From positions 1-32,139 of the IMG/VR virus record IMGVR_UViG_3300045988_095662: a stretch of 32,139 nucleotides of DNA. The stretch is one strand, 5' to 3'. Every line of letters starts with the position of its first letter. The stretch's first letter is position 1. Below are positions 787 through 32,139 of the stretch, one piece after another. Both the position numbers and the translations under genes were made by a program. The notes beneath the pieces are model-generated. The model did no database searches, was not told the origin of the DNA, and saw only the letters and a program-made list of their open reading frames with translations. This stretch comes from a virus.

Positions 787-1785
787 TTAGTTGAGCGTCG
801 CCGTCTCGCCGCTCACGTTCGCCTGAGCGACGGTTACGGTCTCGCTAGAAAGTGCAGTGCGTCTGTTGGTGGGCATGTACGCCGTTTCGCCAAGGACTAT
901 GTAGCCGTCCTGTAGCTCCACAAGCGCCGTCGCAAGCGTCGCGTTCTCTTCGCGCAGCTCTTGCACCTCGTCATCTGAGGGCGGCTCGATAGAAGCGATA
1001 GAGTTTGCGATGTTAAGCGCGTTCTGCGCAGCGGCGGTGGCATCCTCCGCCGCGCCGTTTGCCGCAGCAGCGGCGGCGTTGGCGCTTGAAGCGGCAGTGT
1101 TCGCCGCGCTCGCGGCGGCGTTGGCGTTGGATGTTGCCGCGTCGGCGTTCTGCTTGGCGGTGTTGGCGGCTGATGCCGCGTTGTTCGCAGCCGTGGTTGC
1201 AGCGTCGGCGTTCTGCTTGGCGGTGTTCGCCGCCGAAGCTGCGCTTGTCGCCGAAGCTGCGGCATCGTTTGCAGCCTTCGCGGCGTTGGTCGCGCTCGTA
1301 GCAGCCGAGTTCGCCTTGCTCGCGGCGCTGTTCGCCGCGCTGGCCGCGCTGTTGGCTGAGCTTACGGCCTGATTGCCACGGTTGATGAGGTCTTGCACGG
1401 CATCGTCCCAGTTCTGCGAGGGCTGCTGCCCGTCAAGAGCGCTGCGCAGGATTTCGATTGCGAAGCGCTCCGTCGAATAGGTATTGCCGCTCTTCGTGAT
1501 CGTGAAATAGGCTTCGTCGGTGTAGCCGGACACGCTGCAAAGCTTGGATTCGTCAACCGTGATCGTGGCGGCGTTGCCGCTCACCGAGCACTGGCCGCGA
1601 TAGTAGTTGCGCTTGTTCGGCAGAAGCACGACAAGCCATGCGGTAGCGCCTGAAAGCGAGAACTCAGCGCCGTTGTCGTAGATAAGCGCCTTGATTGTGG
1701 TTCCGCCATTGTCGCCCTGACCAACCTTGACGCAGGTTCCCGCACCTTCTTTCGAAATATCGAGTTCAAGCGTTCTGGTGTTCAT
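787..1785 (-). CDS. BppU-like baseplate upper / tail fibre protein with an Ala-rich coiled-coil repeat region
   Basis: 332-aa ORF. The N-terminus resembles BppU N-domains (MNTRTLELDISKEG...). The centre is an A/S/N-rich heptad-like repeat containing a 63-bp tandem duplication. Position is the distal tail module. Confidence 0.7.
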   Translation of the reverse strand: MNTRTLELDISKEGAGTCVKVGQGDNGGTTIKALIYDNGAEFSLSGATAWLVVLLPNKRNYYRGQCSVSGNAATITVDESKLCSVSGYTDEAYFTITKSGNTYSTERFAIEILRSALDGQQPSQNWDDAVQDLINRGNQAVSSANSAASAANSAASKANSAATSATNAAKAANDAAASATSAASAANTAKQNADAATTAANNAASAANTAKQNADAATSNANAAASAANTAASSANAAAAAANGAAEDATAAAQNALNIANSIASIEPPSDDEVQELREENATLATALVELQDGYIVLGETAYMPTNRRTALSSETVTVAQANVSGETATLN

Positions 1786-4099: not shown

Positions 4100-4827
4100 C
4101 GTTCCACCCACTCAAGAATCGCGGTGCCGTTAGTGATGTTCAGGTGGCATCGTCCGTTGATCTCGAAGTAATCCGAATCAATCGTTACCGGCGCGGTCTG
4201 GTTGTTTACCGTCGCGTGCTCGGTCGCCATGTCAAGCCGTATGGTGCTCGAAGACGTGAGCGCGGTATTGATAGCCACAAACTCGCCGGTATCGACGTTC
4301 GTAATCCGCCACGTGCTGCCAGCGGAGGGCTTCGCCGTGACCTTCAGGTAAGCGGGTCGGTTGCCGCCAGCGTTTACGTAGATGTTGCCAGCCGAAACCT
4401 CCATGCGGCGCTTCTGTCCGTAATAGTCGGGGTCGCCGATATGGAAAGTCACGGTTGTAGTCGGGCAATCGTCGGTGATCTCGTCAAGGTCGGTGCTGCC
4501 GCTCACGATTGCGAGCAGGTAGCGCGTCGGGTCATCAGGAAGGTAGAGCGGAGCTGGTTCGTCCGTCCAGAGAGCCGCCGCGAGCTTATGCCGCATCTCC
4601 GCGACCTCGCGGCGGTCTTCCGTCCTAAGCCAAATCTCAACGGGAAGGTCGTAGCCGCCACGGTAGGCGCTCTTGAAGACCTCGCCATGCCGCCCCGGCA
4701 CGCTCTCGAACGTCGCGTTGACGGTCGCCATGATGGGGCGGCGCACCTTGCAGTAAACCAGCTTCGATAGGTCGGTGCCGTTGAAGATGATTCGGTCGTG
4801 CTGGTTCCTAGTCCGTCTAAGTTGCAA
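4090..4827 (-). CDS. Distal tail protein (Dit, siphovirus tail component)
   Basis: 245-aa ORF directly after the tape measure gene. TTG start follows GGGGGGTG. The N-terminus (IIFNGTDL...) is typical of the phage tail family. Confidence 0.7.
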   Translation of the reverse strand: MQLRRTRNQHDRIIFNGTDLSKLVYCKVRRPIMATVNATFESVPGRHGEVFKSAYRGGYDLPVEIWLRTEDRREVAEMRHKLAAALWTDEPAPLYLPDDPTRYLLAIVSGSTDLDEITDDCPTTTVTFHIGDPDYYGQKRRMEVSAGNIYVNAGGNRPAYLKVTAKPSAGSTWRITNVDTGEFVAINTALTSSSTIRLDMATEHATVNNQTAPVTIDSDYFEINGRCHLNITNGTAILEWVERWL

Positions 4828-9112: not shown

Positions 9113-9480
9113 CGTCCGTCGCCCCCCATCTCCGCGAACTCTCGCGCCACTTGGTCTGCAACCTTCCTGATAACGCCGTCGCCGGGAACGGTGCCGTAAT
9201 CCTCGCCAGTCTGGTTCGTGATCTGGTGGCCGTTCTCCAACAGGTGCGTTAGCTGGTATCGCCGGTTGTGCACGGTGCATTCGGTGCCCGTCTCATCGGT
9301 CTTAACGTCGGCCTTCCAACCCTTCTTGTAAGCACCGGTGCGCACCTTGATTTCTTGCTTCAACAGCTTTACGGCGCGCCTTCCGGCTTCGCCCGCGTTC
9401 TCAGCGAGCGCGGAAACGTTGTCTTCCACGCACTCTTTCATGCAGCTGCTTATGAACCGCTCGATGCTCTGCTCAGCCAC
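9109..9480 (-). CDS. HK97 gp10-family head-tail component
   Basis: 123 aa. Size, order and the HNRRYQLTHLLENGH motif are typical of the gp10 family. Confidence 0.7.
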   Translation of the reverse strand: MAEQSIERFISSCMKECVEDNVSALAENAGEAGRRAVKLLKQEIKVRTGAYKKGWKADVKTDETGTECTVHNRRYQLTHLLENGHQITNQTGEDYGTVPGDGVIRKVADQVAREFAEMGGDGR

Positions 9481-9784
9481 GGTCGCCCACCACCTCAGCG
9501 AGCGTCAGGCGCACGAAGTCGGGGCTTGACCTGTCAACGCGCGCGACCGTGAGCCGCGCGCCGTCGAACTCGACTAGCCGCTCACCTTCGTATGCGCTCT
9601 TGCGAATCTGCAATACGGCTTCGGGGTGTACGCCAGCGGCAGCGGCGGCGTAATAGGCCGCGTCGCCCATAGAGAAGACGTTGCAGAACACCTTGCGCTT
9701 TGTTTCCTCCGTCTGCTGCACGCCGTATTCGTCCTTCTTGACGGTCTTAGCGATGAGCTGGCACGTGCCAGCCCACATGCTCAT
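9473..9784 (-). CDS. Head closure / head-tail adaptor protein
   Basis: 103 aa, in the canonical position after the gp6-like connector. Confidence 0.65.
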   Translation of the reverse strand: MSMWAGTCQLIAKTVKKDEYGVQQTEETKRKVFCNVFSMGDAAYYAAAAAGVHPEAVLQIRKSAYEGERLVEFDGARLTVARVDRSSPDFVRLTLAEVVGDRG

Positions 9785-10097: not shown

Positions 10098-11378
10098 TTA
10101 CTTTGCGGCGGTGCCGATGGTGAGCTGTCCGAAAGCCTTAGGCACGACAAGGCCGCCGTCAAAGAGCAGGTAGCCGTCAAAGCAGCGCTTCTGCGTACCA
10201 GGCTCGACATAGGGCGTAACGTCCACGCCGTCGAAGATGTTTCCACGGAACAGGTCGGGATAACCAGCCTTGATGATGCCATCTGCCATAGAATCGTCGC
10301 GCTTAACGAGCTTGCCGAAGATATGACCCTCAACGGCGGGGTCTTCGGTCTTCTCGTCCACGAAGTAAGAGCGCCCGTTGGCATCCTCGACCATAGCAAT
10401 GTGGTTCCAAATAGTGTTGCCGTTGGCGTAGATAATGCAGCCCTTCGGCGCAGGGTTGCCGTAGGTGTAGAGCAGGCCGAGAAGCTTGGTAATATCCGCC
10501 TTGGCAAGCGTTCCAGCGGTGGCGCAGTTAATCTTGTTGCCGGAATCCATGCCGAGCGTGCCATCAACAGTCTTGGCGTGGACACGCGCGTTGGCGGCGA
10601 CGGCAAGGCGCGCGCCAGTCTCGTTGACGATGTACTGCTCAAAGCCGTTGATAGACTGAACCGCCATCTTACGGCTCATCTTCACGGTCTTCTTGATCTC
10701 CTCGCCCGTAAGGGTGATGGGGTCGAACTCGTTCTGCTCCTCATCGGCGGGCGCGGCTCCCTCGTCGGTCTTCGCAGCGTCGCCAGCCTTGATGCTCTTA
10801 TGGCGGATAAGCTCGAACTGATGCGGGAAGTTGTCCTTGTGGATATCTCCGTAGAGAACAGCTGTGTTGTCAATCAGCGTGAAAATCTGCGTCTGAAGCT
10901 CGACGGGGATAACCGCATCGGTGTTGCTGGTCAGATGCGTGAACGCGGTGCGGCGCTCGACAAGCGCGTTGTAAGCGTCGCGCTCAACCTGCGTGAAATC
11001 GGTACCCTCGATGAGCTGCACGCCGCTCCGGCGGGCAATGTCTTTCACCCAAGCGCGGCGGGCGGCGGCGTTGTAGTCGGTCGTGTCGCGCACCTGCGGC
11101 AGAGCCCCGCGAGCGCTCGCGGAAGTGCCCAGCGGCACGGCATCGACGCGGCGGGCGCTGCCGTTCTCGATAGCGGCGCGCGCGGCGGCGACGGTCGCGG
11201 CGTGGCTGTCGCGGCGCTGCGCTGCGGCGGCGTTTCGCTTCTCGATCTCGGCGGTAAGCGCGCTCATGCGCTCAGCGTCCTGCTCGCTCGGCTCAGCATC
11301 GGTGCCGTCATCGGCCTTGTACTTGTCAACAAGCCCCTGAAGCTCGTTAAGCAGGTCATCCATAGTCAGTTCGTCCAT
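10098..11378 (-). CDS. HK97-family major capsid protein with N-terminal delta/scaffold-like coiled coil
   Basis: The start ATG 11378 lies just after the protease stop at 11383. The gene follows the prohead protease. The 458-aa version overlaps the protease gene. Confidence 0.88.
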   Translation of the reverse strand: MDELTMDDLLNELQGLVDKYKADDGTDAEPSEQDAERMSALTAEIEKRNAAAAQRRDSHAATVAAARAAIENGSARRVDAVPLGTSASARGALPQVRDTTDYNAAARRAWVKDIARRSGVQLIEGTDFTQVERDAYNALVERRTAFTHLTSNTDAVIPVELQTQIFTLIDNTAVLYGDIHKDNFPHQFELIRHKSIKAGDAAKTDEGAAPADEEQNEFDPITLTGEEIKKTVKMSRKMAVQSINGFEQYIVNETGARLAVAANARVHAKTVDGTLGMDSGNKINCATAGTLAKADITKLLGLLYTYGNPAPKGCIIYANGNTIWNHIAMVEDANGRSYFVDEKTEDPAVEGHIFGKLVKRDDSMADGIIKAGYPDLFRGNIFDGVDVTPYVEPGTQKRCFDGYLLFDGGLVVPKAFGQLTIGTAAK

Positions 11379-11382
11379 TGTC

Positions 11383-12018
11383 CTAAACCTTTCTGCTCTT
11401 GGCGATTGCCAGTGTTGCCCTAGCGATTGCAAGGGCGCTCTTACGGCGCGCAAGCTCCTTGCGCGACTGCTCAATCACTCCGTTGAGCAGGTTTCTTGCT
11501 GAAATCTCCGTATTGGGGTCAGCCGGAAGGCTCACCGCCGACACGTCGAAAACCTTTTTGACGCGCGTAATGGTCGTGGTGTGCGTGTCCCGGTCGTATT
11601 CGTCAGCGCCCACGCTGAAAGCCCACGACATGCGCGTGATAAGGCCGTTAGTAATCTCTTCGTAAAGGTCGCGCGCGGCCTGAGAGCCGCTAAGGTCTGC
11701 CGCGATGAATAGCCCGTGCTTGTCAGGCTCGACAATGAGCGTGTTGTTGCTCATGCGCGCAAGCACCTTGCCCGCATGGTCGTACTGCATGATAACGTCG
11801 CTCATGTCCGCGCCGTCGAAAGCGCCGGGGTCGATGATCTCGCGATACTCGTTGCCGTCCCAGTCGGTGAAAAGCACGTATGGGTCGTTGAATGTCGATG
11901 CGTAGCCCTCGACGTAGTAATCGGTGTCAAAGCGCTTGTTCGCGCTTCCGTCAGCCGTCCGCACGTTGAGCGGCACGGCAAGGGAACGGTATTGCCGCTC
12001 ACTCGGTTTCGCTGGCAT
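11383..12018 (-). CDS. HK97-family prohead protease
   Basis: 211 aa with AAGGAGG upstream of the ATG. It lies between the portal and capsid genes. Confidence 0.85.
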   Translation of the reverse strand: MPAKPSERQYRSLAVPLNVRTADGSANKRFDTDYYVEGYASTFNDPYVLFTDWDGNEYREIIDPGAFDGADMSDVIMQYDHAGKVLARMSNNTLIVEPDKHGLFIAADLSGSQAARDLYEEITNGLITRMSWAFSVGADEYDRDTHTTTITRVKKVFDVSAVSLPADPNTEISARNLLNGVIEQSRKELARRKSALAIARATLAIAKSRKV

Positions 12019-13276
12019 CGTCTACCTCCTTGCTGGTTCCAACGCCGCTGCTCGCGTCGATAGCGGCTATGTTCGCGTTCGTCTGCGCGGCTTGCGCCGC
12101 CTGTTCCGCCGTGTGCTCGCTGATGAGCGCAAGGTCGATGTACTCGCCGCGTATGACGTGGCGCTCGCCGCCGTCGTAGTGCGGCGATTGGAAAACATCG
12201 GCAACCTGATTGCCGTTCCAGATGCCACGGTCGAAGAGCGCGACCGAGACGTTAAGCTTCGTCGTGTTGCTGGCGAACTCTAGTCGGTTCGCGCTGAACA
12301 TGATTGAGTTTCCGTGCGCTATCTCGTTCGCCGTGTACGTCATGGAGGTGATAACGAAGCCGAGCTGAACAGCGAACGGCTCGATGCGTCCTTCGTAGTA
12401 GCTGTTGAAGGTGTCTTCGTCCGCGCAGTTCGTGACGATATCCTCATTGGAGCCGAAGAAGCGGTAAGCGCTCTTCTCGATTCGCTCCATCTGCGCCGCA
12501 TCGACCGTGTAACTGTTCGGCGTTATCTGCTGCACGTCTGAAAACAGCTTGTCATATACGGCGATGCCGCCCGCGTTGTCTGCGGAAAGCTGAGCGTTGA
12601 ACGCCTTGCGCGCCTTCTCTTGGTCGCCCTCGTTGCGGTTCTGGCTGAGCTTGCCGATGAACCGCACCGCCGCGCCCTGATTGATAGCCGACTGCTCGGC
12701 TTCGTTCTGCGCGTGCATCAGCTCCAACGTCGGCTGAAGAACGTTCGTGCCGTCGCCGAACAAATCGCTTTGGTACTGGTGGCGCGTCATAACGCCCACG
12801 CGCGACCACTCTACAAGCACGCTGTCGCCGGTCGGAAACGTGAGCTTCAGCCAAAGCTCGCCGTCAACGTCGTATGCTTCGCACTGGCTCGGAAGAACGG
12901 GGTAATAGCCCGTTATAGTGGTGCCGTCTCCCGCGTCTATCGGGATGATGAGTGCCGTGTCGTTCACCTGAAGAATCGTCCAAACGCGCTTGATGAACTG
13001 CGGCGTTGTCATCCAAGGGTTAGGCTGCTGTCGCAGCGCTCGCGCAGCCGTCGGCTGAGCCGTGCCCGATACTTCGGGCTTCAGCTTGCTTGCGTGGTCT
13101 GCGCCGCTCTCGATGATGCTGCGCGTAAGCTCGGCTTCGTAAAGACCGCCCTGCCATGTCGTGAACGACGGAGCATAGGCCGTGAACGTGGAGAAATAGC
13201 CGTTGACAGCTTGCATCTGCGGACGGTGGAACACCGCATCGAAGAGCGAGCGAACGAACGGTTGTGATCTGCTCAA
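11999..13276 (-). CDS. Portal protein (HK97 family)
   Basis: TTG start at 13276 lies 6 nt after AGGAGG (13283..13288), right after the TerL stop. ~425 aa. Confidence 0.85.
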   Translation of the reverse strand: MSRSQPFVRSLFDAVFHRPQMQAVNGYFSTFTAYAPSFTTWQGGLYEAELTRSIIESGADHASKLKPEVSGTAQPTAARALRQQPNPWMTTPQFIKRVWTILQVNDTALIIPIDAGDGTTITGYYPVLPSQCEAYDVDGELWLKLTFPTGDSVLVEWSRVGVMTRHQYQSDLFGDGTNVLQPTLELMHAQNEAEQSAINQGAAVRFIGKLSQNRNEGDQEKARKAFNAQLSADNAGGIAVYDKLFSDVQQITPNSYTVDAAQMERIEKSAYRFFGSNEDIVTNCADEDTFNSYYEGRIEPFAVQLGFVITSMTYTANEIAHGNSIMFSANRLEFASNTTKLNVSVALFDRGIWNGNQVADVFQSPHYDGGERHVIRGEYIDLALISEHTAEQAAQAAQTNANIAAIDASSGVGTSKEVDDASETE

Positions 13277-13278
13277 CT

Positions 13279-15015
13279 CTAACCTCCTATCATCGCGCGG
13301 TAATCGTCCGCAATGTTCTTCATCGCAATGAACGCGTCGCACTCAGCCGCCCACGCGTCTATGCGGTTGCGCGGGTCTTGGTTCTTCTTGTCGGGCTGAA
13401 TGTTTCCGTTCACGTCGGTTCGAATGGCGACGTTCGAACGGCACCATTCGGCAATCGGGTTGGCGTTGTCAACGATGCGCCCTTCCTTGTAGAGCGCTCG
13501 AAGCTCCTTCATCGGCATTGACAGCGTTTGTGCGCCCTGAATGACCTTTTGCAGGTTGTCAGCGCCGAAATAGTCTTCGTATGCTTCCACGGTCGGCACA
13601 TCGCGCATGTGCCACGGGTCGTATCCGCACGCTACGGCATAGATTCCGTACTTGTCTTGAACTTCCGCCACCCAATCCAGAACGTCGCGCTTGTCCATGA
13701 TGGGCGTTTCGCACGTTCGCATAAGCCCGCGCGCAATCCACGCATCGTAAGGCACACCGTCGCGACCGCCGCGCCGCCCCTCGCGCTCTGCTTGCTCCAA
13801 AGCGCGAAGCGGAATCCACGCCATATGAAGCGCGTAGATGTTCGGGTCGTTCGGTCGCTGCATCAGAAGGCAAGCGGCGGTAAGGTCGGTCGTGTCCGCC
13901 GCGTCAACGCCAAGAACGGCATACGTAAAGGTTCCGTCGCCGGGGTCGAATGTCGCTTCGTTGTGTATCTCAGCCCACGTCAACCAAGACTGAGACTGGT
14001 TTTCAATGAGGTTGAAATCCTTAACAAGCAGCGTAGGAAGGTATGTCGCATCATCCTTAGCCTTGGAAACGTTCTGTCGAAGAGCCGAAAGCGATTTGAT
14101 CGTGCCAAGGCCGGGGTTCGCCTTAATCCAAGCGCTTTCGTCTTCCCATTCCTCGCGCCCGTCAAGCTCGAAAATGAACGCGATGAAACGCTCTGCCTTC
14201 TCGCCGGTCGCCTTGCCGTCAAGCCATTTGGTCGCGTACTCGTATTGCGCATCGAAGATGCTGTTTCGCACGAAACCGTTAGTCGTGATCTCCAACACGA
14301 GCGGCTGGCGGCGCGCAGACGTTCCCTGCATCGTCAGGTCGTAAAGGTCGCGGTTCTTCATCGCGGCCAGCTCGTCCACGATTGCGCCGGAAATGTCCAA
14401 GCCGTCAAGATGGTTCGTGTTTGCGCTCAGAGCGCGAATGCTGCCCATGTTCAGATCGCAGTACAAGTCTGCAACCCTCTTGCGGATGTGCTTAGCGAGC
14501 GCAGGGCTGGTCTGCACCATGCGCCATGCGTTGTTGAAGCCTTTAGCCGCCTGATCGCGCGCGGTTGCTACGTTATAGACCTCCGGCGCGCCTTCATCGT
14601 CGTTAACGAGCAAGTCAAGCTCTATCGCAGACGCAAGCGCGGTCTTTCCGTTCTTGCGTCCCATAATCCAGAGCACTTCGCGGTACTGCCGCACGCCCTC
14701 AGCGTCAACGAATCCGAAAACGACGGACAGAATGGCGCGTTGGAAAAGCTCTAGCTTGAAATCGTGCCCCAAGCGCCCGGACGGTAGGCGGCAGAAGCTT
14801 TCGATGAAGCGAACATGCTTCTGCGCGTATTCCTCGCGGTAGTGGTACGGATAGAGCGGGTCGGTGTTGTCCATGCCCTGAAGCACGATAGCGGCAACCT
14901 GCTTCATCTTGCCGCATGCGGTTATATCGCCGCGCAGGATGCCGCCGAAGTAGTCACGTATGGCGCGCTCGCACGAACCATACTTGCCGGTCGCTCTAAC
15001 CGAACCGCGTTTCAT
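13279..15015 (-). CDS. terL: Terminase large subunit
   Basis: ~578 aa in the canonical position. The start is ambiguous (ATG 15015 or TTG 15027). Confidence 0.9.
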   Translation of the reverse strand: MKRGSVRATGKYGSCERAIRDYFGGILRGDITACGKMKQVAAIVLQGMDNTDPLYPYHYREEYAQKHVRFIESFCRLPSGRLGHDFKLELFQRAILSVVFGFVDAEGVRQYREVLWIMGRKNGKTALASAIELDLLVNDDEGAPEVYNVATARDQAAKGFNNAWRMVQTSPALAKHIRKRVADLYCDLNMGSIRALSANTNHLDGLDISGAIVDELAAMKNRDLYDLTMQGTSARRQPLVLEITTNGFVRNSIFDAQYEYATKWLDGKATGEKAERFIAFIFELDGREEWEDESAWIKANPGLGTIKSLSALRQNVSKAKDDATYLPTLLVKDFNLIENQSQSWLTWAEIHNEATFDPGDGTFTYAVLGVDAADTTDLTAACLLMQRPNDPNIYALHMAWIPLRALEQAEREGRRGGRDGVPYDAWIARGLMRTCETPIMDKRDVLDWVAEVQDKYGIYAVACGYDPWHMRDVPTVEAYEDYFGADNLQKVIQGAQTLSMPMKELRALYKEGRIVDNANPIAEWCRSNVAIRTDVNGNIQPDKKNQDPRNRIDAWAAECDAFIAMKNIADDYRAMIGG

Positions 15016-15418
15016 TGATGAAGTCAATGAGCGCGTCGGCTGCGGCGGTTCCGTTCGGCATCATGTCGGTTAGCTGCTTAACGCCGCGTGAGAACGTGGT
15101 GAACAGCTTGTTGTATGCACTGAATCCGGGATGCTCTCGCAGCCCGGTTTGCCCGCCGCCGTTGTCGTACTCGGTGAAGATGTCTTCGTAGAGCAGATCG
15201 GCGCGGGCATCGTCAAGCTTGACTTTCAGAAACGCGAGGTTGGCCAAAAGCGGCATGACGGCTTTTCGCTTTTCGTCGGGGATAGCGCCCTTGGTGATCT
15301 CGCGCAGCTTCCGAAGCTCGCTCTCTACGCGCTTCTCCTTGGCAACTCGCCGCTTCGGCGGGCTATTCCCCGCGACTGCGGGCGAAACTTTCGAAGTATT
15401 GCCTACTTTTGCCGTCAT
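14996..15418 (-). CDS. terS: Terminase small subunit (P27-like)
   Basis: 140 aa with GGGGGTGG upstream of the ATG. It lies immediately upstream of TerL. Confidence 0.75.
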   Translation of the reverse strand: MTAKVGNTSKVSPAVAGNSPPKRRVAKEKRVESELRKLREITKGAIPDEKRKAVMPLLANLAFLKVKLDDARADLLYEDIFTEYDNGGGQTGLREHPGFSAYNKLFTTFSRGVKQLTDMMPNGTAAADALIDFINETRFG

Positions 15419-18947: not shown

Positions 18948-20126
18948 CTAACCCGCCGCGCGGCGCTTCGCTTCGCTGAAGAGCTGAGCTGCCGCCGCGT
19001 CGCGTCCGGGCATCAGGTGGCCGTAGATTCGAAGCGTCGTTGCTTCGTCCGCGTGCCCCATGCGCTCAGATAGCGTCTTCAGGTCGCAGCCGTTGGCGAT
19101 AAGCCACGAAGCGTGCGTGTGCCGCAAGCTGTGAAACGTGATCTCTCGCGGCAGTCCGCATGCGTCTCGTATGCGGCTGAAAGCCCGTGAAATCGTCGTT
19201 GGGCGCATGTAAGAGCCGTCTAGCGTCACCAGCGGGCAATCAGCGCCCAAGCGCCCCAGAACGTCGCTCTGAAGCTTCGTGAAGGCATCAATAACCGCGA
19301 TATCGTCTTGCGTAAGCGCGATGTTGCGGCACTTGCGGCCTTTTGTCACGTTGCGGCGATAGGGCTTCTTGCCCTTGCCCTCAATGACGTTGCCGCCGAC
19401 GTGGACGTAAGACATGGCGCGCTTAACGTCGATGCGCTGCACCGCGCAGACCTCGCCAACGCGCATTCCGGTAACGAGCGACAGCCACGAAGCGAAGGCG
19501 TAGACGGCGGCGCGGTAATCGGCTTTCGTCTCAATCTCCTTGCTAAGCGCGCCCTCTAGCTTCCCGTTGAAGCCCTCGAAGTCCCATTCGGTGAGCGCCG
19601 AAGCTTCGTGCCGTTCCGGCGATGGTTTGGCGACGTACACCAGCGGGTTAGCGTCGCAAATGCCAGCGTCTACGAAGTGGTTATAAGCGCCGCGCAAGAA
19701 GTTGTGGACGTTGATAACGCTGTTGCGGCAAAGACCTTGCCCGCCTTCATCCTTCGCCATGAGCAAGCGTTGCTCAAAGCGGTTGAAGTCCATAACGCCA
19801 AGATCGCGTGCGTTTGCGGTCTTCAGATAACGTGCGACGTAGCGGCAAAACAGCCGATAGCTCTTAATGCTGTTCGGGCTTGCGCCGTTGCGCTCCCTCA
19901 GTTGCACGTAATCTTCGAGCAAATCGGTCAAGCGGTCGCTTCTAACCGTTCCGTCAGCCGTCACGTAAGCCGCCCACGTCTCAGCGAGGGCTTGCGCTTC
20001 CTCTTCGGTTGCCGCATTCGGAAACCGCTTGTAAGGGCGAATCGCCTTGCCGTCGATGCTGCGCCCAAGGTACAACCGGCACTCGAAAACGCCATCTGCA
20101 CCGCGCTTGACCTTAACGCCCATCAT
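18948..20126 (-). CDS. Tyrosine recombinase / phage integrase family
   Basis: C-terminal catalytic region ...RVGE...HSLRHTHASWL...GHADEATTLRIYGHL. ATGA overlap with the upstream small ORF. Confidence 0.9.
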   Translation of the reverse strand: MMGVKVKRGADGVFECRLYLGRSIDGKAIRPYKRFPNAATEEEAQALAETWAAYVTADGTVRSDRLTDLLEDYVQLRERNGASPNSIKSYRLFCRYVARYLKTANARDLGVMDFNRFEQRLLMAKDEGGQGLCRNSVINVHNFLRGAYNHFVDAGICDANPLVYVAKPSPERHEASALTEWDFEGFNGKLEGALSKEIETKADYRAAVYAFASWLSLVTGMRVGEVCAVQRIDVKRAMSYVHVGGNVIEGKGKKPYRRNVTKGRKCRNIALTQDDIAVIDAFTKLQSDVLGRLGADCPLVTLDGSYMRPTTISRAFSRIRDACGLPREITFHSLRHTHASWLIANGCDLKTLSERMGHADEATTLRIYGHLMPGRDAAAAQLFSEAKRRAAG

Positions 20127-20344
20127 GACCACTCGCAGTTTTCACGAATCCGCGAAGGGCAGTTATCGTCGTGGCAGTCCGCGCAATCCAACTGCTCTTT
20201 CCTGATGTGGAACTCAACGATTCGGTACTTCAGAGAAAATCGGATGAGCAGCAGCAGGGCATGAGCAAGCGAGTTGGTAAATTGACCGTCCCAGAACGGG
20301 CAAAGTCCGCTCATCGCGCCGCGAACCTCGTACTTGCCGCCCAT
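20123..20344 (-). CDS. Small Cys/His-rich hypothetical protein (73 aa)
   Basis: The ATG lies 1 nt after the upstream stop, and the stop overlaps the recombinase start. Contains CADCHDDNC...C. Confidence 0.45.
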   Translation of the reverse strand: MGGKYEVRGAMSGLCPFWDGQFTNSLAHALLLLIRFSLKYRIVEFHIRKEQLDCADCHDDNCPSRIRENCEWS

Positions 20345-24254: not shown

Positions 24255-25190
24255 GTGAATAGACTTGAAAAGCTTCGGGCAATCAGCCCAAGCGACATTC
24301 TTATTTTCGATACCGAAACAACGGGTCTTAATGTCGGCGGCTCGCGCCGTGATGAAATACTGTCACTCGCTGTCATGAATCTTGACGGAGACGTTCTGTT
24401 TTGCGATCTATTGAGGCCATCAGAACGCAAAAAGTGGCCGAAAGCAGAAAGCATAAACGGCATATCTCCGTCTATGGTGAAGGACAAGAAGACGATTATA
24501 GAAAGGCGCTCGGAAATCGAACCGATTTTCAAGAGCGCTAAGCTATACGTCGCATACAATGCCGATTTCGACCTAGGCTTTCTTAGAGCTTCCGGTTTGG
24601 ATATACCAGATCGTCAGACGTTTGACGTGATGAAAGAGTTTGCGAAGATACATGGGGCATGGGACGGCACGCATGATGAATGGTCATGGTGCAAGTTAGA
24701 AGATTGCGCGGCGTTTTACGGATATCGTAACTTCGAAGCTCACGACGCGCTGAACGACGTTAAGGCAACCGCGCATTGCTTCAATTCGATTCTCGATGAT
24801 TTTCTTTTCGGTGAGCCGCGCCGCCGACCGAAGCTGGTTAAGGATGAGTTCGGCGATTCGTATTTCGAGTATGGCGACGAAGAGTTTAGAAGCATCGTTT
24901 GCAGCGGTTATGCTGCCGCATTGTCCGAAACTGGCAAACACACTAACTACGCGCCATCATCTAACGAGCTTCAGCAGCAAGCCAAGGATGAAAAAGACAG
25001 TGCAGATAACCAACCGGCCAGAAACCATGCCGTGTCAGATCAGCGGAGCACCAATAAAGCACTGGTGTTAATCGGTTCCGTTTGCGCATTGATTGGTCTT
25101 GCAATCACTGTTTTAGGTGCTGCAATCGTCGGTGTTCCAATTGCTATATTGGGCGCTTTGCTTGCCGTAGGTGCAAGGGGAAGGAAATAG
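24255..25190 (+). CDS. DEDDh (DnaQ-like) 3'-5' exonuclease fused to a C-terminal double-TM anchor
   Basis: ExoI FDTETTG, ExoII AYNADFD, ExoIII HDALNDV. The C-terminal ~40 aa are hydrophobic (ALVLIGSVCALIGLAITVLGAAIVGVPIAILGALLAVGA). GTG start. Confidence 0.8.
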   Translation: MNRLEKLRAISPSDILIFDTETTGLNVGGSRRDEILSLAVMNLDGDVLFCDLLRPSERKKWPKAESINGISPSMVKDKKTIIERRSEIEPIFKSAKLYVAYNADFDLGFLRASGLDIPDRQTFDVMKEFAKIHGAWDGTHDEWSWCKLEDCAAFYGYRNFEAHDALNDVKATAHCFNSILDDFLFGEPRRRPKLVKDEFGDSYFEYGDEEFRSIVCSGYAAALSETGKHTNYAPSSNELQQQAKDEKDSADNQPARNHAVSDQRSTNKALVLIGSVCALIGLAITVLGAAIVGVPIAILGALLAVGARGRK

Positions 25191-25282
25191 AAAACCCTGC
25201 GCGGCTTCTTGGCGGTCGGCGCGCAGGGCAAGTGCAAAGAACGAAGCGCATTAGCGCACTCGCTCTAAGGGGTGATTTTAGC

Positions 25283-26860
25283 ATGGTGAAGAACAGAGCA
25301 GCCATATACGCGCGCTTCAGCTCGCACAATCAGCGCTCTGAGAGTATCGAGATACAAGTTGAGAACTCGCGCGCATACTGCGAGCGCGAGGGCTTGCAGG
25401 TCGTGCGGGAATACTGCGACTATGCGCAGACAGGGCGCAACGTCAACCGCGCTGAGTTCCAGCGCATGATGAACGATGCGAAGCTAGGTCTATTTGATTT
25501 TGTGGTGATTTACAAGGTGACGCGCATAATGCGCAACCGCGATGAAATGGCCTTGGCTCGAATCATGCTGCGCAAGGCCGGTGTTGAAATACTGTACGCG
25601 GGCGAAGAGATCGCGAGCGGTTCGAGCGGTGTGCTGCAACTCGGCATGCTCGAAGTTCTCGCGGAATGGGAAAGCGCTATCGACAGTGAGCGCATAAGAG
25701 ACGGAATCCAGAAGAACGCCGCTCGGTGCCTTGCTAACGGGCATTCGCTATACGGTTGGGATATCGTAGACGGTCGTTATAGCGTCAATGAGCGCGAAGC
25801 GGCGCTTATGCGCAAGATGAAGAACATGCTGTTTTCCGGCCATTCGGTAGCCGATATCGTGCGGGCGCTCGAAGGTGAGAAGACACGCAATGGAAAGCCC
25901 TTCAACCAAGACAAGGTGACTAAGCTTCTGCGAAGGGTGCAGAACGGCGGAACATATAGCTATGCCGGTCATGTGGTAGAAGGTGGGATGCCGGGTCTTT
26001 GGCCGCAAGTAGAACAAGACATGATAGAAAGCGTCCTTAACGACAGGCACCGCCCGCGCCGCAAGGTAGATTCGTCTAAAGAGTTTCCGCTTTCCGGCAA
26101 ACTCTACTGCACGAAATGCGGTATGCCAATGGCGGGAATGAGTGGAACATCTAAGACAGGCAAAGCCTATCACTACTACCGTTGCCGCAAGTGCAGAAGA
26201 ACAGTGCGCCGTGATCTGATAGAAGATGCCGTAGTAGATATGACGCTGCAAGCCGTTGCGCGCGACGATGTGCGACAGCGGATAGCGCAAGGAATGGCGC
26301 TCTACCAATCAGAGCAAGAAGAGACGAAGCCAGAAAGCTACTATCTGAAGAAAGAGCTTAGGCGCATTGATGCGGCGTTCGAACGCATCTGGCAAGCGAT
26401 AGAAGATGGGATTGCACCACCGGGCGGAAAAGAGCGCACGGACGAACTGAAGTGCCGCAAAGCGGAAATCGAAGCGCAGCTGCGCATAGCAGAGCGCGAC
26501 GAATCTATGTCGTTTGGCGTTGACGAACTCATGCTGTGGCTCGATGAGATCGCAACGGAACTAACGCCGCTCGATATCCTCAACAAGTTTGTTCGGTTCG
26601 CTGAGATTGACGGCAAGAGCAACCGCATACGCGTTTACTTTGCCTTCGATAAGCACGGTGACGGCTTTTCGCCTAACAGCGCGGACAAAGGCGAACACCT
26701 CTATGAAGAGAGGTGTTCGCCTAATTCTACGCTGGTGGAGCTTATGAGAAAAACGGCGAACTCCACAAGCACCGCCAACCGCGCAGCTATCCAGCTTGAT
26801 ACTTGCATCGTTAGGGTATCGAAAAACTGGTTTGTTGTCGTTGGCACGTGTCAAAAATAG
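25283..26860 (+). CDS. Large serine recombinase (probable phage integrase)
   Basis: N-terminal resolvase domain (AAIYARFSSHNQ...). Zinc-ribbon Cys pairs (CTKCG...CRKC). C-terminal coiled coil. AAGGGGTG lies upstream of ATG 25283. Confidence 0.9.
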   Translation: MVKNRAAIYARFSSHNQRSESIEIQVENSRAYCEREGLQVVREYCDYAQTGRNVNRAEFQRMMNDAKLGLFDFVVIYKVTRIMRNRDEMALARIMLRKAGVEILYAGEEIASGSSGVLQLGMLEVLAEWESAIDSERIRDGIQKNAARCLANGHSLYGWDIVDGRYSVNEREAALMRKMKNMLFSGHSVADIVRALEGEKTRNGKPFNQDKVTKLLRRVQNGGTYSYAGHVVEGGMPGLWPQVEQDMIESVLNDRHRPRRKVDSSKEFPLSGKLYCTKCGMPMAGMSGTSKTGKAYHYYRCRKCRRTVRRDLIEDAVVDMTLQAVARDDVRQRIAQGMALYQSEQEETKPESYYLKKELRRIDAAFERIWQAIEDGIAPPGGKERTDELKCRKAEIEAQLRIAERDESMSFGVDELMLWLDEIATELTPLDILNKFVRFAEIDGKSNRIRVYFAFDKHGDGFSPNSADKGEHLYEERCSPNSTLVELMRKTANSTSTANRAAIQLDTCIVRVSKNWFVVVGTCQK

Positions 26861-26960: not shown

Positions 26961-28025
26961 CTAATAAGAAAGCTTCTGGCCGGGGTAGATCGTATAAGGT
27001 GCCCCAATGCCGTTCTTGCTTGCGATGGTGTGCCAGTCGATACCGAGCGAAGCGCCAATCTCGCTGAGCGTGTCGCCGCTCTTGACGGTGTAGACGCGCG
27101 CAGCGCCAACGCCCGCCCTCTGGTTGACGATTGCCTGAACCTCGCTGAAGCGGTCGCCCAGAACGTCGCTGCGCGTCGGCACAACGCCGAACATTCCGCG
27201 TTCCACATCATCTGCGAGCTGAGAAGCGGAAGCGCCGTCAATGTAGTTGATGAGGTCTTGCACCTCTTGGTAACGGTCGCCGAGCTTTTCGCGGCGCTCA
27301 TCGTCAACGCCATACTCGCCGCGCATGACCGCTGCTGCAAGGTCAAGCGTCGTGCCCTCCGGCGAAGGCTCGGCGACCTCTGCGGGCGGAACGTCGGGCG
27401 CTGCCGCGCCGGACGGGTTGGCAAACTTACCCCACGCTTCGCGCGTCATATAGGCGATATCGAGATCAAGCGGCGCGTTGAAGCCATCGAGACGGCCATT
27501 CGACGTGTACTGGTGGATTGCGCAGCTACCCCAAGCGCCAAAGCCGCCATCGGGAAGCCACGGCGAAGACTGGTAGCCGGTTCGGTTGTTGTTGGCGTAC
27601 TGCGCAACCCAGAGCGCGTGATTCGGCGCGATCTGAGACCAATCCTCTTCGGTGCAAACGCTACGGCTCATGTAGACGATGCAGCGAACGCCGGTCTGAT
27701 CGTAGACGTAATCGAGGAACTGCTTTGCCTTGTCGGTTCCGATGCGCCCGTACATCTCATAATCGAGAACGGGAATGCCGTTGCCGAAGTAGTTACGGCA
27801 GCTTGCGACGAAGTGCTTAGCCTGAGCGATGGGGTCTTCTCCGTTCATGAAGTGATAGAAGCCCCAGAGCTTGCCGAGCTTGATAGCCTGCTGAATCCAC
27901 GGGTCGCAGGTGTTGTGAACGATGGTGGTTCCCTCGGTCGCCTTGCAGATAACGAAATCGCAAGGCACCTGCGCGAGGTCAAGCCCTCGCTGGTAGTTGG
28001 AAATATCAATGCCGTTGAGTGCCAT
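26961..28025 (-). CDS. Endolysin: GH25 muramidase + CW_7 (Cpl-7-like) repeats + LysM
   Basis: N-terminus GIDISNYQ...DFVICKATEG typical of GH25. Two ~40-aa repeats of the form RGEYG..ERR..LGDRY..VQ. C-terminal YTVKSGDTLSEIG...IYPGQKL (LysM). Confidence 0.9.
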   Translation of the reverse strand: MALNGIDISNYQRGLDLAQVPCDFVICKATEGTTIVHNTCDPWIQQAIKLGKLWGFYHFMNGEDPIAQAKHFVASCRNYFGNGIPVLDYEMYGRIGTDKAKQFLDYVYDQTGVRCIVYMSRSVCTEEDWSQIAPNHALWVAQYANNNRTGYQSSPWLPDGGFGAWGSCAIHQYTSNGRLDGFNAPLDLDIAYMTREAWGKFANPSGAAAPDVPPAEVAEPSPEGTTLDLAAAVMRGEYGVDDERREKLGDRYQEVQDLINYIDGASASQLADDVERGMFGVVPTRSDVLGDRFSEVQAIVNQRAGVGAARVYTVKSGDTLSEIGASLGIDWHTIASKNGIGAPYTIYPGQKLSY

Positions 28026-29418: not shown

Positions 29419-29865
29419 TCAGCCCTCCGTCACCTCTCGCCAGACGGTTTCGGTTCCGACAGCCCCCGGCTCCCAGACGTTGTTAGCAACGAGGGATTCC
29501 CAGACCTTGCCGTTGTGCTTCACGCGGGCACCGAGCGGGTAGGGATTCGTAGAATCGGGCTGCACCCATTCGGGCACTTCCTCTGTCGGCGTGTCGGGCG
29601 TGCCCGCTTCAAGCACCTTCGCCCAAAGGCTCGGCGCTGCCGTTGGTGCCCAATCGGTCTGCGACGTGTGCGCCTGAAGGCAAACGTAAATCTCGCCCTC
29701 ATAGCTCGCGCGCTCGCCCTCGGCGTAGGCGTGGCCGTTGCCGTCCCACGCGGCGAAGAGCGCGGCGGCTCGGCTCGCCACGTCGGTTGAGAGAGACGGC
29801 GCTTGTGTCTTGTAAATCGCGATGATCGCGCGCACCATGCTCTCTTCGTCTTCGGTGAGTGCCAT
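29419..29865 (-). CDS. Protein with two CBM5/12-like carbohydrate-binding repeats
   Basis: Two aromatic-spaced repeats: W..G..Y..GE...Y.G..Y.C...H.S...W.P....SLW and Y.LG..V.H.GKVW.S...N.WEPG. Confidence 0.55.
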   Translation of the reverse strand: MALTEDEESMVRAIIAIYKTQAPSLSTDVASRAAALFAAWDGNGHAYAEGERASYEGEIYVCLQAHTSQTDWAPTAAPSLWAKVLEAGTPDTPTEEVPEWVQPDSTNPYPLGARVKHNGKVWESLVANNVWEPGAVGTETVWREVTEG

Positions 29866-29943: not shown

Positions 29944-31053
29944 TTAGCTGAAGAGCTGCTTATAGAGCGCGTCCATGCGCCTTACCGTCTCGTGAGCGTC
30001 AAGCCGCTTCATGCCTCCGCGCCACGATTGGTAAGACTGGTTGACTTGCTCGACGGTCATAACGCCGCGAGCGACCAGCGCCGCTTGCTTCTTCAGCTTG
30101 CGCCGCTGTCGCGTCACGGAAGAGCGGCAAGGGCGAACAACCACCTTTTCACCCTCGCCATATGAAAACCTCTTCTTCAGGAACACGAAGCCGCGCGACA
30201 GCTTCACTACGCGCGTCTTCTTGCGGTTGATGATGATTCCCAGATCGTCGCAGAGCGCTTCGATGCGCGAAAGCGCGTCCCAAAGCGTCTGCTTGTCAAG
30301 CGCGATGCAATAGCTATCGTCCATGTAGCGACCGCTCGCGAGGATGCCCGGAAGCGAAAGCATCAGATGGTCTATCGGCGACGGCAAGGCCACCGCTAAA
30401 ATCTGGTTCGGCTCGCTGCCAAGACCAAGCCCGCGCGCGCCGTGAGCGTCTATCTGGTCGCCCATGACGCGCTTAACGCGCTCATCGTCAATGGCTCTGT
30501 CGATGATGCGCTTGCAAGCGTCGTGGTCGATGTTCGCGAAATAGTCCGAGAAATCGACCTGCAAGATGTAGCCTTCCGTCCCGTGCTTTCGCCGGTGGGC
30601 TACAAGCTGACGCTTCATGCGCTTGATTGCGTACTCGGTGCCGCGCCCCTTCACGTTTGCGGCGCATCCCTCTGTCAGGGTAGGCCAGATCGCAGGTGCG
30701 AGCGCGTGACGGCTTAAAGACTTCTGTATGACACGCTCCGAGAAGTGGACAGAGCAGATATGACGAAGCTTTCCGCGCTCGAAAAGGTCAAACTCGATGA
30801 AGCCGCGCCGGAAGTCAGCGCCCGTGAGCAGGTCGCGGCGCGCCCGCATGATGTTTGGCATGACGCGCCCCATGTAGCGCTGAACGCTTGCCTTCCAGCG
30901 AACGCCCGCAGCAGCGCCGTTCGCCGCACTGTATAGGTTATCGAGGTCTGCGACGGCTTCTAGCGTGCATCCTTCGATGCGCCTAGCCCTATTCTCCGCG
31001 CGCTTGGCATCTCGCCTTGCGCGGCGTGCTGCGCGTCGCTCTTCAGAGTTCAT
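29944..31053 (-). CDS. DGR reverse transcriptase (369 aa)
   Basis: YMDD box encoded at 30327->30316. Also LQVDFSDYF and other RT palm motifs. Start chosen at ATG 31053 (MNSEERR...) because the longer ORF would run through the spacer toward TR. Confidence 0.92.
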   Translation of the reverse strand: MNSEERRAARRARRDAKRAENRARRIEGCTLEAVADLDNLYSAANGAAAGVRWKASVQRYMGRVMPNIMRARRDLLTGADFRRGFIEFDLFERGKLRHICSVHFSERVIQKSLSRHALAPAIWPTLTEGCAANVKGRGTEYAIKRMKRQLVAHRRKHGTEGYILQVDFSDYFANIDHDACKRIIDRAIDDERVKRVMGDQIDAHGARGLGLGSEPNQILAVALPSPIDHLMLSLPGILASGRYMDDSYCIALDKQTLWDALSRIEALCDDLGIIINRKKTRVVKLSRGFVFLKKRFSYGEGEKVVVRPCRSSVTRQRRKLKKQAALVARGVMTVEQVNQSYQSWRGGMKRLDAHETVRRMDALYKQLFS

Positions 31054-31421
31054 GAGGGCACCCCGCGCGGCTTGCAGTCGGCATCCAGCAGCCGCTTGAC
31101 GGTTGACCATGAAACGCGGTCGGAAGCCGAGAACCGCGCCATGCAAGCAGCGAACGGCAACCGTCGCGGGGTGCATATTTACGGGCGCATGCCCGATGGT
31201 CGCCCCTTCCTTCCTCAAATGCACGGCGCGCGGCGCTTACGGCCGCGCGGTCTGGCAAAGCTTGGGAATCACGGCAGCGGGCGTATCCAGTCGTTCGTCG
31301 GCGCGTTGTTGTTGGCATTGCCGTTGTTGTTGACATTGCACGCGTTGGACGCAGAACCACCCATGACAGACCGCAGCCACCAATTGACGCGACGATTTCC
31401 AAGGGACAACTCGCGAACATT
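31054..31421 (-). ncRNA. DGR template RNA region (TR plus 5' and 3' flanks / spacer)
   Basis: Non-coding stretch between avd and the RT. It holds TR and a GC-rich spacer with an 8-bp hairpin (31227..31249). Confidence 0.6.
31265..31393 (-). repeat. DGR template repeat (TR), 129 bp
   Basis: Aligns without gaps to 31920..32048 (offset 655). It is adenine-rich on the minus strand, with 11 AAY codons in the VR frame. Confidence 0.92.
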
Positions 31422-31832
31422 TTACCCCTTTCCTATGAGTTTCACTCCAGCGCGAGCGCCCTTTATCAGCTTAATGTCGCTGTCGATTCGGTCTAGGATT
31501 CCTTCGAGCCGCGCGGCCTTGATGGGAAGCCCCATAGTCAGAAGGCTTTGCATGTCTTGGTAGAGATGGTTTAGGTCTGCCAGCGCAAGCGTCATGTAGC
31601 GCTTCCGCTCATCGACGTTGCGCGGCGTGTTCGGATAGAATGCGTCGGCCTTAACCAGATTGAAGACAACGCTTCGCGCCGTCTCTGCCATAGGCACCGC
31701 GAAGATGAATCGGTAGGATTTCGGAACGTCGCGCGACGTTACAAGGCGCGTCACGTCGTTTCTGATCGCAACCGCCGTGTTGAAATACTCGAAAGAGCTT
31801 AGGTTGCGGTTGCGCATGTATACGCCGCTCAC
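31422..31832 (-). CDS. avd: Accessory variability determinant (Avd-like four-helix-bundle protein)
   Basis: 136-aa helical basic protein between the target gene and TR. AGGAGG lies 9 nt upstream of GTG 31832. Size and position match Avd. Confidence 0.75.
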   Translation of the reverse strand: MSGVYMRNRNLSSFEYFNTAVAIRNDVTRLVTSRDVPKSYRFIFAVPMAETARSVVFNLVKADAFYPNTPRNVDERKRYMTLALADLNHLYQDMQSLLTMGLPIKAARLEGILDRIDSDIKLIKGARAGVKLIGKG

Positions 31833-31862: not shown

Positions 31863-31885
31863 GGCGCATGCGCAAGGCATGCGCC
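31863..31885 (-). promoter_or_regulatory. GC-rich hairpin downstream of VR (candidate DGR target-recognition cruciform)
   Basis: ggcgcatgc (31863..31871), 5-nt loop, gcatgcgcc (31877..31885). It lies 23 nt after the target stop codon. Confidence 0.6.
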
Positions 31886-31908: not shown

Positions 31909-32139
31909 TCAGCCTATGAGGAAGCACGGCAGCGGGCGTACCCAGCGGTCCGCCGGCGCGGTGTGGTTGGCAGTGCCGTTGCTGCCGACAGGGCACGCGC
32001 CGGACGCAGAACCACCCATGACAGACCGCAGCCACCAAATGACGCGACCGCCCGCGATGCGGCTTGCCGTGTCGCTGAAGATGGGGAACTGGCTATCGAA
32101 GCCGACAGAGTAGCCCTTGGTTCCCCATACCGGACAGCC
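31909..32139 (-). CDS. DGR target protein, C-terminal part including VR (32041..32139 duplicates 1..99)
   Basis: The frame is continuous with 1..771. Hand translation: ...GGRVIWWLRSVMGGSASGACPVGSNGTANHTAPADRWVRPLPCFLIG, with stop TGA at 31911..31909. Confidence 0.85.
   Translation of the reverse strand, partial: GCPVWGTKGYSVGFDSQFPIFSDTASRIAGGRVIWWLRSVMGGSASGACPVGSNGTANHTAPADRWVRPLPCFLIG
31920..32048 (-). repeat. DGR variable repeat (VR), 129 bp, codons ~255-298 of the 300-codon target
   Basis: 17 mismatches to TR, 16 of them at TR adenines on the minus strand. Confidence 0.92.
32041..32139. repeat. Terminal direct repeat, copy 2 (identical to 1..99)
   Basis: Direct comparison. Confidence 0.97.

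Follow-up and report, generated by a model that had tools for sequence, protein, structure and literature searches.

A probably functional diversity-generating retroelement in a temperate phage of the Collinsella group

The virus record IMGVR_UViG_3300045988_095662 (positions 1 to 32,139; this whole stretch of 32,139 nucleotides is called the window below) carries two copies of a 129-nt repeat, one of them non-coding and the other at the 3' end of a phage gene. With a probability of about 0.93, they are the template repeat (TR) and the variable repeat (VR) of a functional diversity-generating retroelement (DGR) in a temperate phage of the Collinsella group. The differences between both copies are adenine-specific, sequence is transferred one way from TR to VR, the VR is hypervariable, the transfer has a sharp 3' limit and all the parts of a DGR are present, with an Avd-like protein as accessory factor. 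The first 99 nt of the window are the same as its last 99 nt (1-99 = 32041-32139), and the window is a circular genome of 32,040 bp of unique length, cut inside the target gene of the DGR. This gene is not truncated: it wraps around the circular genome across the 99-nt terminal overlap. The order of the cassette is target gene with the VR at its 3' end, avd-like gene, TR and reverse transcriptase (RT) gene:

100-771, minus strand: target gene, 5' part (N-terminal 224 aa), directly downstream of a BppU-like gene
31909-32139, minus strand: target gene, 3' part (C-terminal 76 aa and stop codon), continuing around the circle from 100-771
31920-32048, minus strand: VR, 129 nt, 3' end of the target gene
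31422-31832, minus strand: Avd-like gene, 136 aa
31265-31393, minus strand: TR, 129 nt, non-coding
31038-31260, minus strand: RT-2 spacer RNA (RF03077)
29944-31053, minus strand: RT gene, 369 aa

The repeat pair and its variation among related genomes

The exact recount of the ungapped alignment of TR 31265-31393 with VR 31920-32048 (129 nt, offset 655) gave 17 mismatches, as the initial annotation had reported, and a repeat search of the window recovered the same pair independently, with 87% identity. At 16 of these mismatches the TR has a T on the plus strand, and hence an A on the coding minus strand; they are exactly the 16 positions previously listed as template adenines. As the TR contains 28 A in 129 nt, the binomial probability of finding at least 16 of 17 mismatches at A is 3.3e-10. 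The 17th mismatch, at 31292, is a C on the plus strand (coding G to C). The adenines of the TR are mostly found in AAC and AAT codons of the VR frame, and the variable ones occupy codon positions 1 and 2. In the target frame the TR is translated as RVNWWLRSVMGGSASNACNVNNNGNANNNAPTNDWIRPLP-stop and the VR as ...VIWWLRSVMGGSASGACPVGSNGTANHTAPADRWVRPLPCFLIG-stop, translations which agree with the earlier statement that nine of the 11 Asn codons are changed in the VR (to I, G, P, G, S, T, H, T and D). The VR encodes the last ~43 residues of the target, up to ...RPLPCF, and ends 8 nt before the stop codon of this 300-aa protein. The TR is located 211 nt upstream of the RT start and has an in-frame stop, a TGA where the VR has TGC. 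When only the non-A positions of the TR were scored, neither a further copy of the TR nor a second, remote VR was detected in the window.

Related loci, designated here by L numbers, were obtained from contigs encoding the identical RT protein (by look-up) and from other scans, among which a scan of metagenomes for the pattern gave four loci, far fewer than the look-up and a scan of genomes. The 29 related TR/VR pairs of the lineage comprised 28 distinct VRs and 11 distinct TRs, and 364 of their 370 mismatches were at TR adenines. In addition, all the non-A variants of these TRs with respect to the TR of the window were also present in the cognate VR (113/113), which shows that transfer in this lineage is one-way, from TR to VR. 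Mean pairwise differences per site, calculated for the 11 genomes with an identical RT protein, were as follows:

VR: 0.129
VR, TR-A sites only: 0.576
VR, non-A sites only: 0.0054
Rest of the target gene: 0.0069
VR 3' flank and Avd-like gene (locus 9135-9660): 0.0044
TR: 0.0025
RT: 0.0028
TR-RT spacer: 0.000

The VR is therefore hypervariable against a near-clonal backbone, and an adenine-specific, directional transfer from TR to VR has taken place many times. The initial annotation had interpreted the A-specific substitutions as the signature of DGR homing, and as a sign of homing in this lineage, and it had pointed to related genomes as the place where this could be verified. Both proposals were supported by the comparison: mismatches are not spread over the four TR bases either in the window or in the relatives, VR alleles differ at A-templated sites while the TR is constant or nearly so, and the mirrored non-A changes give the direction of the transfer. 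The same asymmetry appeared in the protein database, in which the 90%-identity clusters that contain the target comprise hundreds of distinct members, most representatives being found on one contig, in contrast to a single Avd-like sequence that is unchanged on 192 contigs.

The pattern extends to more distant relatives. A scan of genome contigs for RTs 35-99% identical to that of the window gave 79 loci from Bacillota, Melainabacteria, Spirochaetota, Synergistota and others, and all of the approximately 68 with enough upstream DNA have a TR/VR pair with A-biased mismatches. Their repeats measure about 94-138 nt (one is truncated at 60 nt) and lie roughly 620-920 nt upstream of the TR. The TR itself evolves, altering which codons can be diversified: in the sister lineages L020-L029 and L042 (TR at locus 2661-2789), several TR adenines (coding positions 49, 67, 108 and 110) have become G, and the VR is then fixed as G at these sites.

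One of the 16 adenine positions has to be considered apart. Coding position 125 (31269 in the TR, 31924 in the VR) is A in the TR and C in the VR in 29 of 29 pairs, turning the TGA of the TR into a TGC (Cys) codon of the VR, and the contrast between TGATTCC (TR) and TGCTTCC (VR) is kept through nearly the whole RT clade. Because it is fixed in the lineage and conserved across the clade, this mismatch, which the initial annotation had included in the template-A mutagenesis, is to be read from the sequences as a discriminator between donor and recipient of the IMH*/IMH type (IMH, initiation of mutagenic homing) and not as a product of mutagenesis. The 17 differences are, in this count, 15 diversifying changes of A type, one fixed difference (31269) and one non-A change. 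The end of the VR where this base is located is:

31924-31938, minus strand: IMH-like 3' end of the VR, consisting of the GC-rich CGCCCGCTGCCG (31927-31938) and the fixed C at 31924

The A at coding position 110 is the last one to be diversified and is followed by CGCCCGCTGCCG and then by the A/C difference at 125, and in L016 a TR variant at position 123 is absent from its VR. Both observations place the 3' limit of the transfer between 111 and 124. The IMH has been described as the 3' limit of mutagenesis (PMC5758913), and the VR end qualifies as an IMH-like element by its GC-rich start, by its location at this limit and by its difference from the TR. On the VR side, a conserved Cys-Phe at the C-terminus of the target accounts at least in part for the C at 31924; on the TR side, the A is kept beside the helix between TR tail and spacer described below in nearly all members of a clade that covers several phyla. 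Another end was seen in L073, L076 and L095, with GGCTCCT in the TR and GGCTTCT in the VR.

Proteins and RNA elements of the cassette

The target, reconstructed as a 300-aa open reading frame (ORF) across the circle (31909-32139 joined to 100-771, minus strand), matched the Pfam domain DUF6273 at residues 142-294 (E 3.5e-9; 37.2 bits against a cut-off of 23.5), the VR being at the C-terminal end of this domain. DUF6273 has been reported as a C-type-lectin-like DGR target domain with the VR at its C-terminus (PMC10743442, PMC11792537). The gene is placed directly after those of Dit, Tal and the BppU-like protein, and its product is likely a distal tail or baseplate protein that would serve as receptor-binding protein. 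Neither the target nor a profile of 30 target sequences had any match in PDB sequence searches other than chance ones to cytochrome oxidase, and hhalign of the target alignment against Mtd of bacteriophage BPP-1 gave a probability of 0.1.

The RT is intact (369 aa), with YMDD at 243 and LGSEPNQ at 211-217. It matched Pfam RVT_1 and phrog_1423 (E 4e-62), and its best PDB relative was bRT of BPP-1 (8ub7, E 1.5e-12), aligned nearly end to end (query residues 34-362) in such a way that IGSLTSQ of bRT (I181/G182/Q187 region) is opposite LGSEPNQ. By these sequence features the RT can be assigned to the DGR clade.

The protein encoded between VR and TR has 136 aa and a pI of 9.98. Its AlphaFold2 (AF2) model is an up-down four-helix bundle (predicted local distance difference test, pLDDT, 82). 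The top Foldseek match of this model was 2rld, titled by its depositors 'S23 ribosomal protein family', the family to which Avd presumably belongs, and the best TM-score was obtained with BPP-1 Avd (4dwl; 0.67/0.81, root-mean-square deviation 2.4). With the annotated Avd of Roseburia phage Shimadzu the protein shares 28% identity along its entire length, and an nr record names a 99%-identical protein 'Avd-like'. Considering its position, size, pI, predicted fold and homology with the Shimadzu protein, we call it Avd-like.

The only Rfam match in the window was RF03077, the RT-2 RNA (31260-31038, minus strand; 100.5 bits against a gathering threshold of 40; model positions 1-222 of 222). It covers the whole TR-RT spacer, from 5 nt after the TR to just past the RT start codon, and showed zero substitutions among the 11 genomes. 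RT-2 was found at the same place in 19 of 20 diverse relatives; in BPP-1 this position is held by RF03022 (Phage_DGR). In the loci L080, L081, L077 and L078 the distance is much shorter, the TR ending about 49 nt before the predicted RT start. One of them, L081, has no RT-2 match but retains, ~35 nt after the TR, the GGAA|GGA spacer motif with which the TR tail pairs. The short spacers of this subgroup are due either to a wrongly placed RT start or to a spacer RNA that extends into the RT coding sequence. A 125-aa ORF with an ATG start (31043-31420, minus strand), which gene callers could annotate, runs in another frame through the TR and the RT-2 RNA of the window and is most likely spurious. 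The smaller elements of the cassette are:

31228-31248, minus strand: GC-rich stem-loop GCGCGGCC-GUAA-G(C)GCCGCGC, 17 nt after the TR, with a GUAA loop and a bulged base
31261-31269, minus strand: TR 3' tail, discriminator A (31269) followed by UUCCCAAG (31268-31261), pairing with the spacer
31203-31219, minus strand: spacer strand UUUGAGGAA|GGAAGGGG, in which UUUGAGGAA (31219-31211), 5' of the conserved GGA(G/A), pairs with the TR tail
31863-31885, minus strand: hairpin or cruciform candidate, 34 nt after the VR, with a 9-bp GC-rich stem and a 5-nt loop

Avd-binding stem-loops with stems of ~9 bp, a flipped base and a tetraloop have been reported just downstream of the TR in 207 DGRs (Handa et al., bioRxiv 10.1101/2023.10.23.563531). 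By analogy, the stem-loop at 31228-31248 is a candidate Avd-binding stem-loop.

Pairing between TR tail and spacer was evaluated with 31 distinct tail/spacer combinations, the tails and spacers being permuted between loci. The mean number of contiguous pairs was 4.84, against 3.83 +/- 0.18 after permutation, and none of 5000 permutations reached 4.84. Examples of covariation are UUCUUUAA with UUAAAGAA, UUCUGUGU with AUGCAGAA, and UUUUUUGU with ACAAAGAA. This helix lies outside the Rfam RT-2 model. Its continuation across the conserved 'UGA' of the TR and 'GGA' of the spacer was also considered and was rejected for want of covariation, so that the helix was ended at U126:A. In BPP-1's template-primer duplex of TR and Sp, the 3' adenosine of the spacer primes cDNA synthesis; the corresponding candidate for the priming adenosine would be near 31211, with cDNA initiation at or just 5' of 31269. 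It is possible, if on the whole doubtful, that RT-2 acts as the cis-priming and RT/Avd-scaffolding RNA of a large multi-phylum DGR clade, in which the A/C base (31269/31924) at the helix junction would mark both the initiation site and the discriminator. If this were the case, it would offer, besides that of BPP-1 and independently of it, a second RNA architecture with abundant natural covariation in which cDNA priming could be studied, as well as a handle on how retrohoming tells VR from TR.

Of 32 relatives, 30 have a perfect stem of at least 7 bp within 90 nt after the VR, compared with 3.4% of random windows; the sequences of these stems differ among relatives. No T tract follows the hairpin at 31863-31885 and no site resembling an intrinsic terminator was found in the cassette, which argues against the hairpin being a terminator. 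GC-rich inverted repeats downstream of the VR occur in about 34% of DGRs and so are not universal; in BPP-1, the hairpin or cruciform after the VR promotes retrohoming. The hairpin found here corresponds to that of BPP-1 and may have the same role.

Taken together, these elements allow the following mechanism to be proposed. The transcript of the TR and the RT-2 spacer would fold and form a ribonucleoprotein together with the RT and the Avd-like protein, in which the 3' tail of the TR (UUCC...) would pair with a spacer segment (...GGAA) where cDNA synthesis would be cis-primed. Synthesis would run 5'-ward through the TR with insertion of random nucleotides opposite adenines, and the cDNA would replace the VR as far as its GC-rich IMH-like end, a step to which the hairpin beyond the VR would contribute. 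Up to about 13 codons, mostly AAC, could in this way be recoded in the C-terminal DUF6273 domain, presumably changing receptor specificity.

Genome, gene order and host

The window belongs to a 32-kb temperate siphovirus of Collinsella and related Coriobacteriia. Outside the cassette, its main genes are:

13279-15027, minus strand: terminase ORF
11999-13342, minus strand: portal ORF
10098-11474, minus strand: capsid ORF
4817-7471, minus strand: ORF of tape-measure size
4090-4827, minus strand: Dit
1973-4111, minus strand: Tal
787-1785, minus strand: BppU-like baseplate gene
Between the RT and the lysin: CBM5/12 protein, holin and C39-like protein
26964-28025, minus strand: GH25 lysin
25082-26860, opposite strand: large serine recombinase ORF, next to the lysis module

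The hosts of the related loci were Collinsella, Gordonibacter sp. An230, Enorma, Olsenella and Coriobacteriaceae. The identical RT protein was indexed in 117 blocks of a public assembly collection, which suggests that this phage is common. Among deposited phage genomes there was no nucleotide match either to the DGR region or to 25 kb of the genome, indicating that it has no named close relative, and a search for tRNA and tmRNA genes was negative.

In the integrated copies L003, L005, L008 and L009, the phage sequence stops at one common point (...CATAAGCTCCACCA), near locus 14306-14310, and beyond it three host contexts (patatin/rplM, YkuD/racemase and smpB) were found over the four copies. 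The attP crossover seems to be located ~100 nt ahead of the serine recombinase stop codon, in the window at about 26745-26760 (3' end of ORF 25082-26860), and several integration sites seem to be used by the phage. The length of the integrase among relatives is 519, 525 or 588 aa. A second recombinase, of 394 aa and belonging to the tyrosine-type 'phage integrase' family (Pfam E 1.3e-21), is encoded among the early genes (18948-20132, minus strand). The gene at 29419-29865 (minus strand), between RT and holin and present in all copies, encodes a 148-aa protein with two CBM_5_12 carbohydrate-binding modules.

Alternative explanations and known systems

The possible objections to a functional DGR were studied, together with other explanations of the repeat pair. 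Several results weigh against our interpretation. One of the 17 mismatches in the window is at a G, and several haplotypes could have been merged in the assembled VR, as a consensus or as a chimera. In the target, the C-type-lectin fold of the VR-bearing domain is putative: the AF2 model stays below a pLDDT of 50 at residues 188-287, and a fold search with this model gave only noise. The accessory protein had no Pfam, NCBIfam or PDB sequence match; Pfam bAvd PF22296, which does recognise BPP-1 Avd, did not match it, and hhalign of its alignment against bAvd gave a probability of 0.1. In addition, the four-helix bundle is a common fold and the Foldseek E-values were only 5e-3 to 0.3. Finally, the whole 386-nt region from TR to RT folds no better than shuffled sequences (z = -0.46), so that the support for an RNA structure comes from the Rfam model and from covariation.

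An ordinary direct repeat, originated by partial gene duplication and followed by neutral divergence with occasional gene conversion, could in principle give two 129-nt copies at 87% identity. However, neutral change would hit the four bases and not almost exclusively TR adenines, as observed in the window and in its relatives; furthermore, one copy is constant and the other hypervariable, and an RT, an Avd-like gene and an RNA in the position typical of DGRs are found between and beside them. This base-specific and copy-specific asymmetry refutes such an origin, whose probability we regard as negligible. If receptor-binding alleles were swapped by recombination or were under strong diversifying selection, with no reverse transcription involved, this would fit with the fact that the receptor-binding tips of phage tails are often hot spots of recombination and selection. 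Nevertheless, the variation is confined to TR-A positions and stops sharply at the repeat boundaries, non-A sites of the VR differ as little as the backbone, and neither swapping nor selection can know the sequence of a non-coding copy located 655 nt away; we consider it highly improbable that they account for the data.

Two further explanations accept the DGR and concern its present state or the allele that was assembled. The overlap start at 32041 adjoins the first variable VR site (32040), and other assemblies of the same phage have no break at this point. A contig break at the VR edge is what would be expected of a de Bruijn graph branch arising from VR polymorphism within the sample, which suggests that the DGR may have been active in the sampled population. 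If the cassette were instead a fossil, dead in this phage after past homing, the VR differences would be old alleles inherited vertically, and the identical VR of L004 and L010, which come from different samples, does show that alleles can persist. But the RT, the Avd-like gene, the RT-2 RNA, the IMH-like end and the hairpin are all intact, the spacer is invariant in the 11 genomes, the 29 loci have 28 distinct VRs on backbones differing by only 0.3-0.7%, recent non-A changes of the TR are already in the VR in every case, and the contig break falls exactly at the first variable site. A dead cassette is for these reasons improbable. It is somewhat less improbable, though still unlikely, that the VR of the window is an assembly consensus or chimera of co-existing haplotypes and not a single allele, in which case the DGR would be equally real. 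That the 99-mer contig end abuts the first variable VR position suggests a polymorphism branch, and metagenome assemblers collapse such bubbles; on the other hand, the VR frame is open, its 15 A-site substitutions are like those of the alleles of the 28 other assemblies (about 4-19), and there is no direct indication of a chimera.

The functional DGR proposed here constitutes a very clean natural record of DGR activity, made up of dozens of near-clonal phage genomes from different people which differ almost only at adenine-templated sites of the tail tip. It also singles out the protein with which this widespread temperate phage probably binds its receptor; few phages are described for Collinsella, which is abundant in the gut. 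The same cassette is present in the cultured Collinsella aerofaciens isolates of loci L023, L025 and L029 and in Gordonibacter sp. An230 of L018, where it could be tested. The predicted priming helix and the conserved discriminator base are both accessible to mutation.

Comparison with the prototype DGR, that of Bordetella phage BPP-1 (mtd-avd-TR-brt), revealed the same set of elements in the same order: a target with a 3' VR, a small basic accessory protein, a TR of similar size (129 nt here, 134 nt in BPP-1), a structured spacer RNA and an RT that aligns end to end with bRT, the DGR being placed in both phages between the tail-fibre genes and the lysis/attachment region. In both, moreover, AAC codons have A-specific mismatches, the IMH-like end is GC-rich and has a difference discriminating TR from VR, and a GC-rich inverted repeat follows the VR (PMC3240598, PMC5758913). 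However, the RT is only 25% identical to bRT, no similarity in sequence to bAvd or Mtd could be detected in the accessory protein or the target, the spacer RNA is RT-2 (RF03077) instead of Phage_DGR (RF03022), and the hairpin, with its loop of 5 nt, is found about 34 nt beyond the repeat. The phage differs as well, being a siphovirus with a Dit/Tal/BppU baseplate and a Gram-positive gut actinobacterial host. In the classification of Wu et al. (PMC5758913), a target upstream of avd-TR-RT is Architecture B1, the commonest DGR layout, and this is the layout of the cassette studied here.

The closest annotated phage is Roseburia phage Shimadzu (LR596903.1), with a 48% identical RT, a 136-aa annotated Avd and a tail-fibre target with a C-terminal DUF6273, in the order tail fibre, Avd, RT, endolysin and integrase. 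It differs in the phylum of its host (Bacillota), in its 431-aa target with a tail-collar N-terminus and in the absence of nucleotide similarity. DGR targets of DUF6273 type are also present in the Faecalibacterium prophages Lelie, CP11, Roos and Pioen and in phages nd4 and nd12 ('tentaclins'), whose RTs are only about 30% identical to this one. In the target1 proteins of nd4/nd12 the domain and the VR are at the N-terminus and Ig-like domains are added, whereas the Collinsella phage has a single 300-aa target with one VR.

A literature search found no paper describing this Collinsella phage DGR and no link of RT-2 to DGRs beyond a speculation of 2017. The mechanism and layout of DGRs were already known, as was DUF6273 as a DGR target domain of gut phages, and this example leaves the understanding of DGRs unchanged; the assignment of RT-2 to a DGR spacer, the covarying TR-tail:spacer helix and the clade-wide A/C discriminator are modest additions. 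When the RT motifs were described, only RT-10 was tied to a DGR, that of BPP-1, and for the other ones such a relation was speculated (Weinberg et al., 2017; PMC5737381). In comparison with this Rfam entry, the RT-2 RNA of the window is found directly after the TR of a demonstrably diversifying DGR, which gives an orphan Rfam family a concrete context as the TR-RT spacer of a DGR clade.

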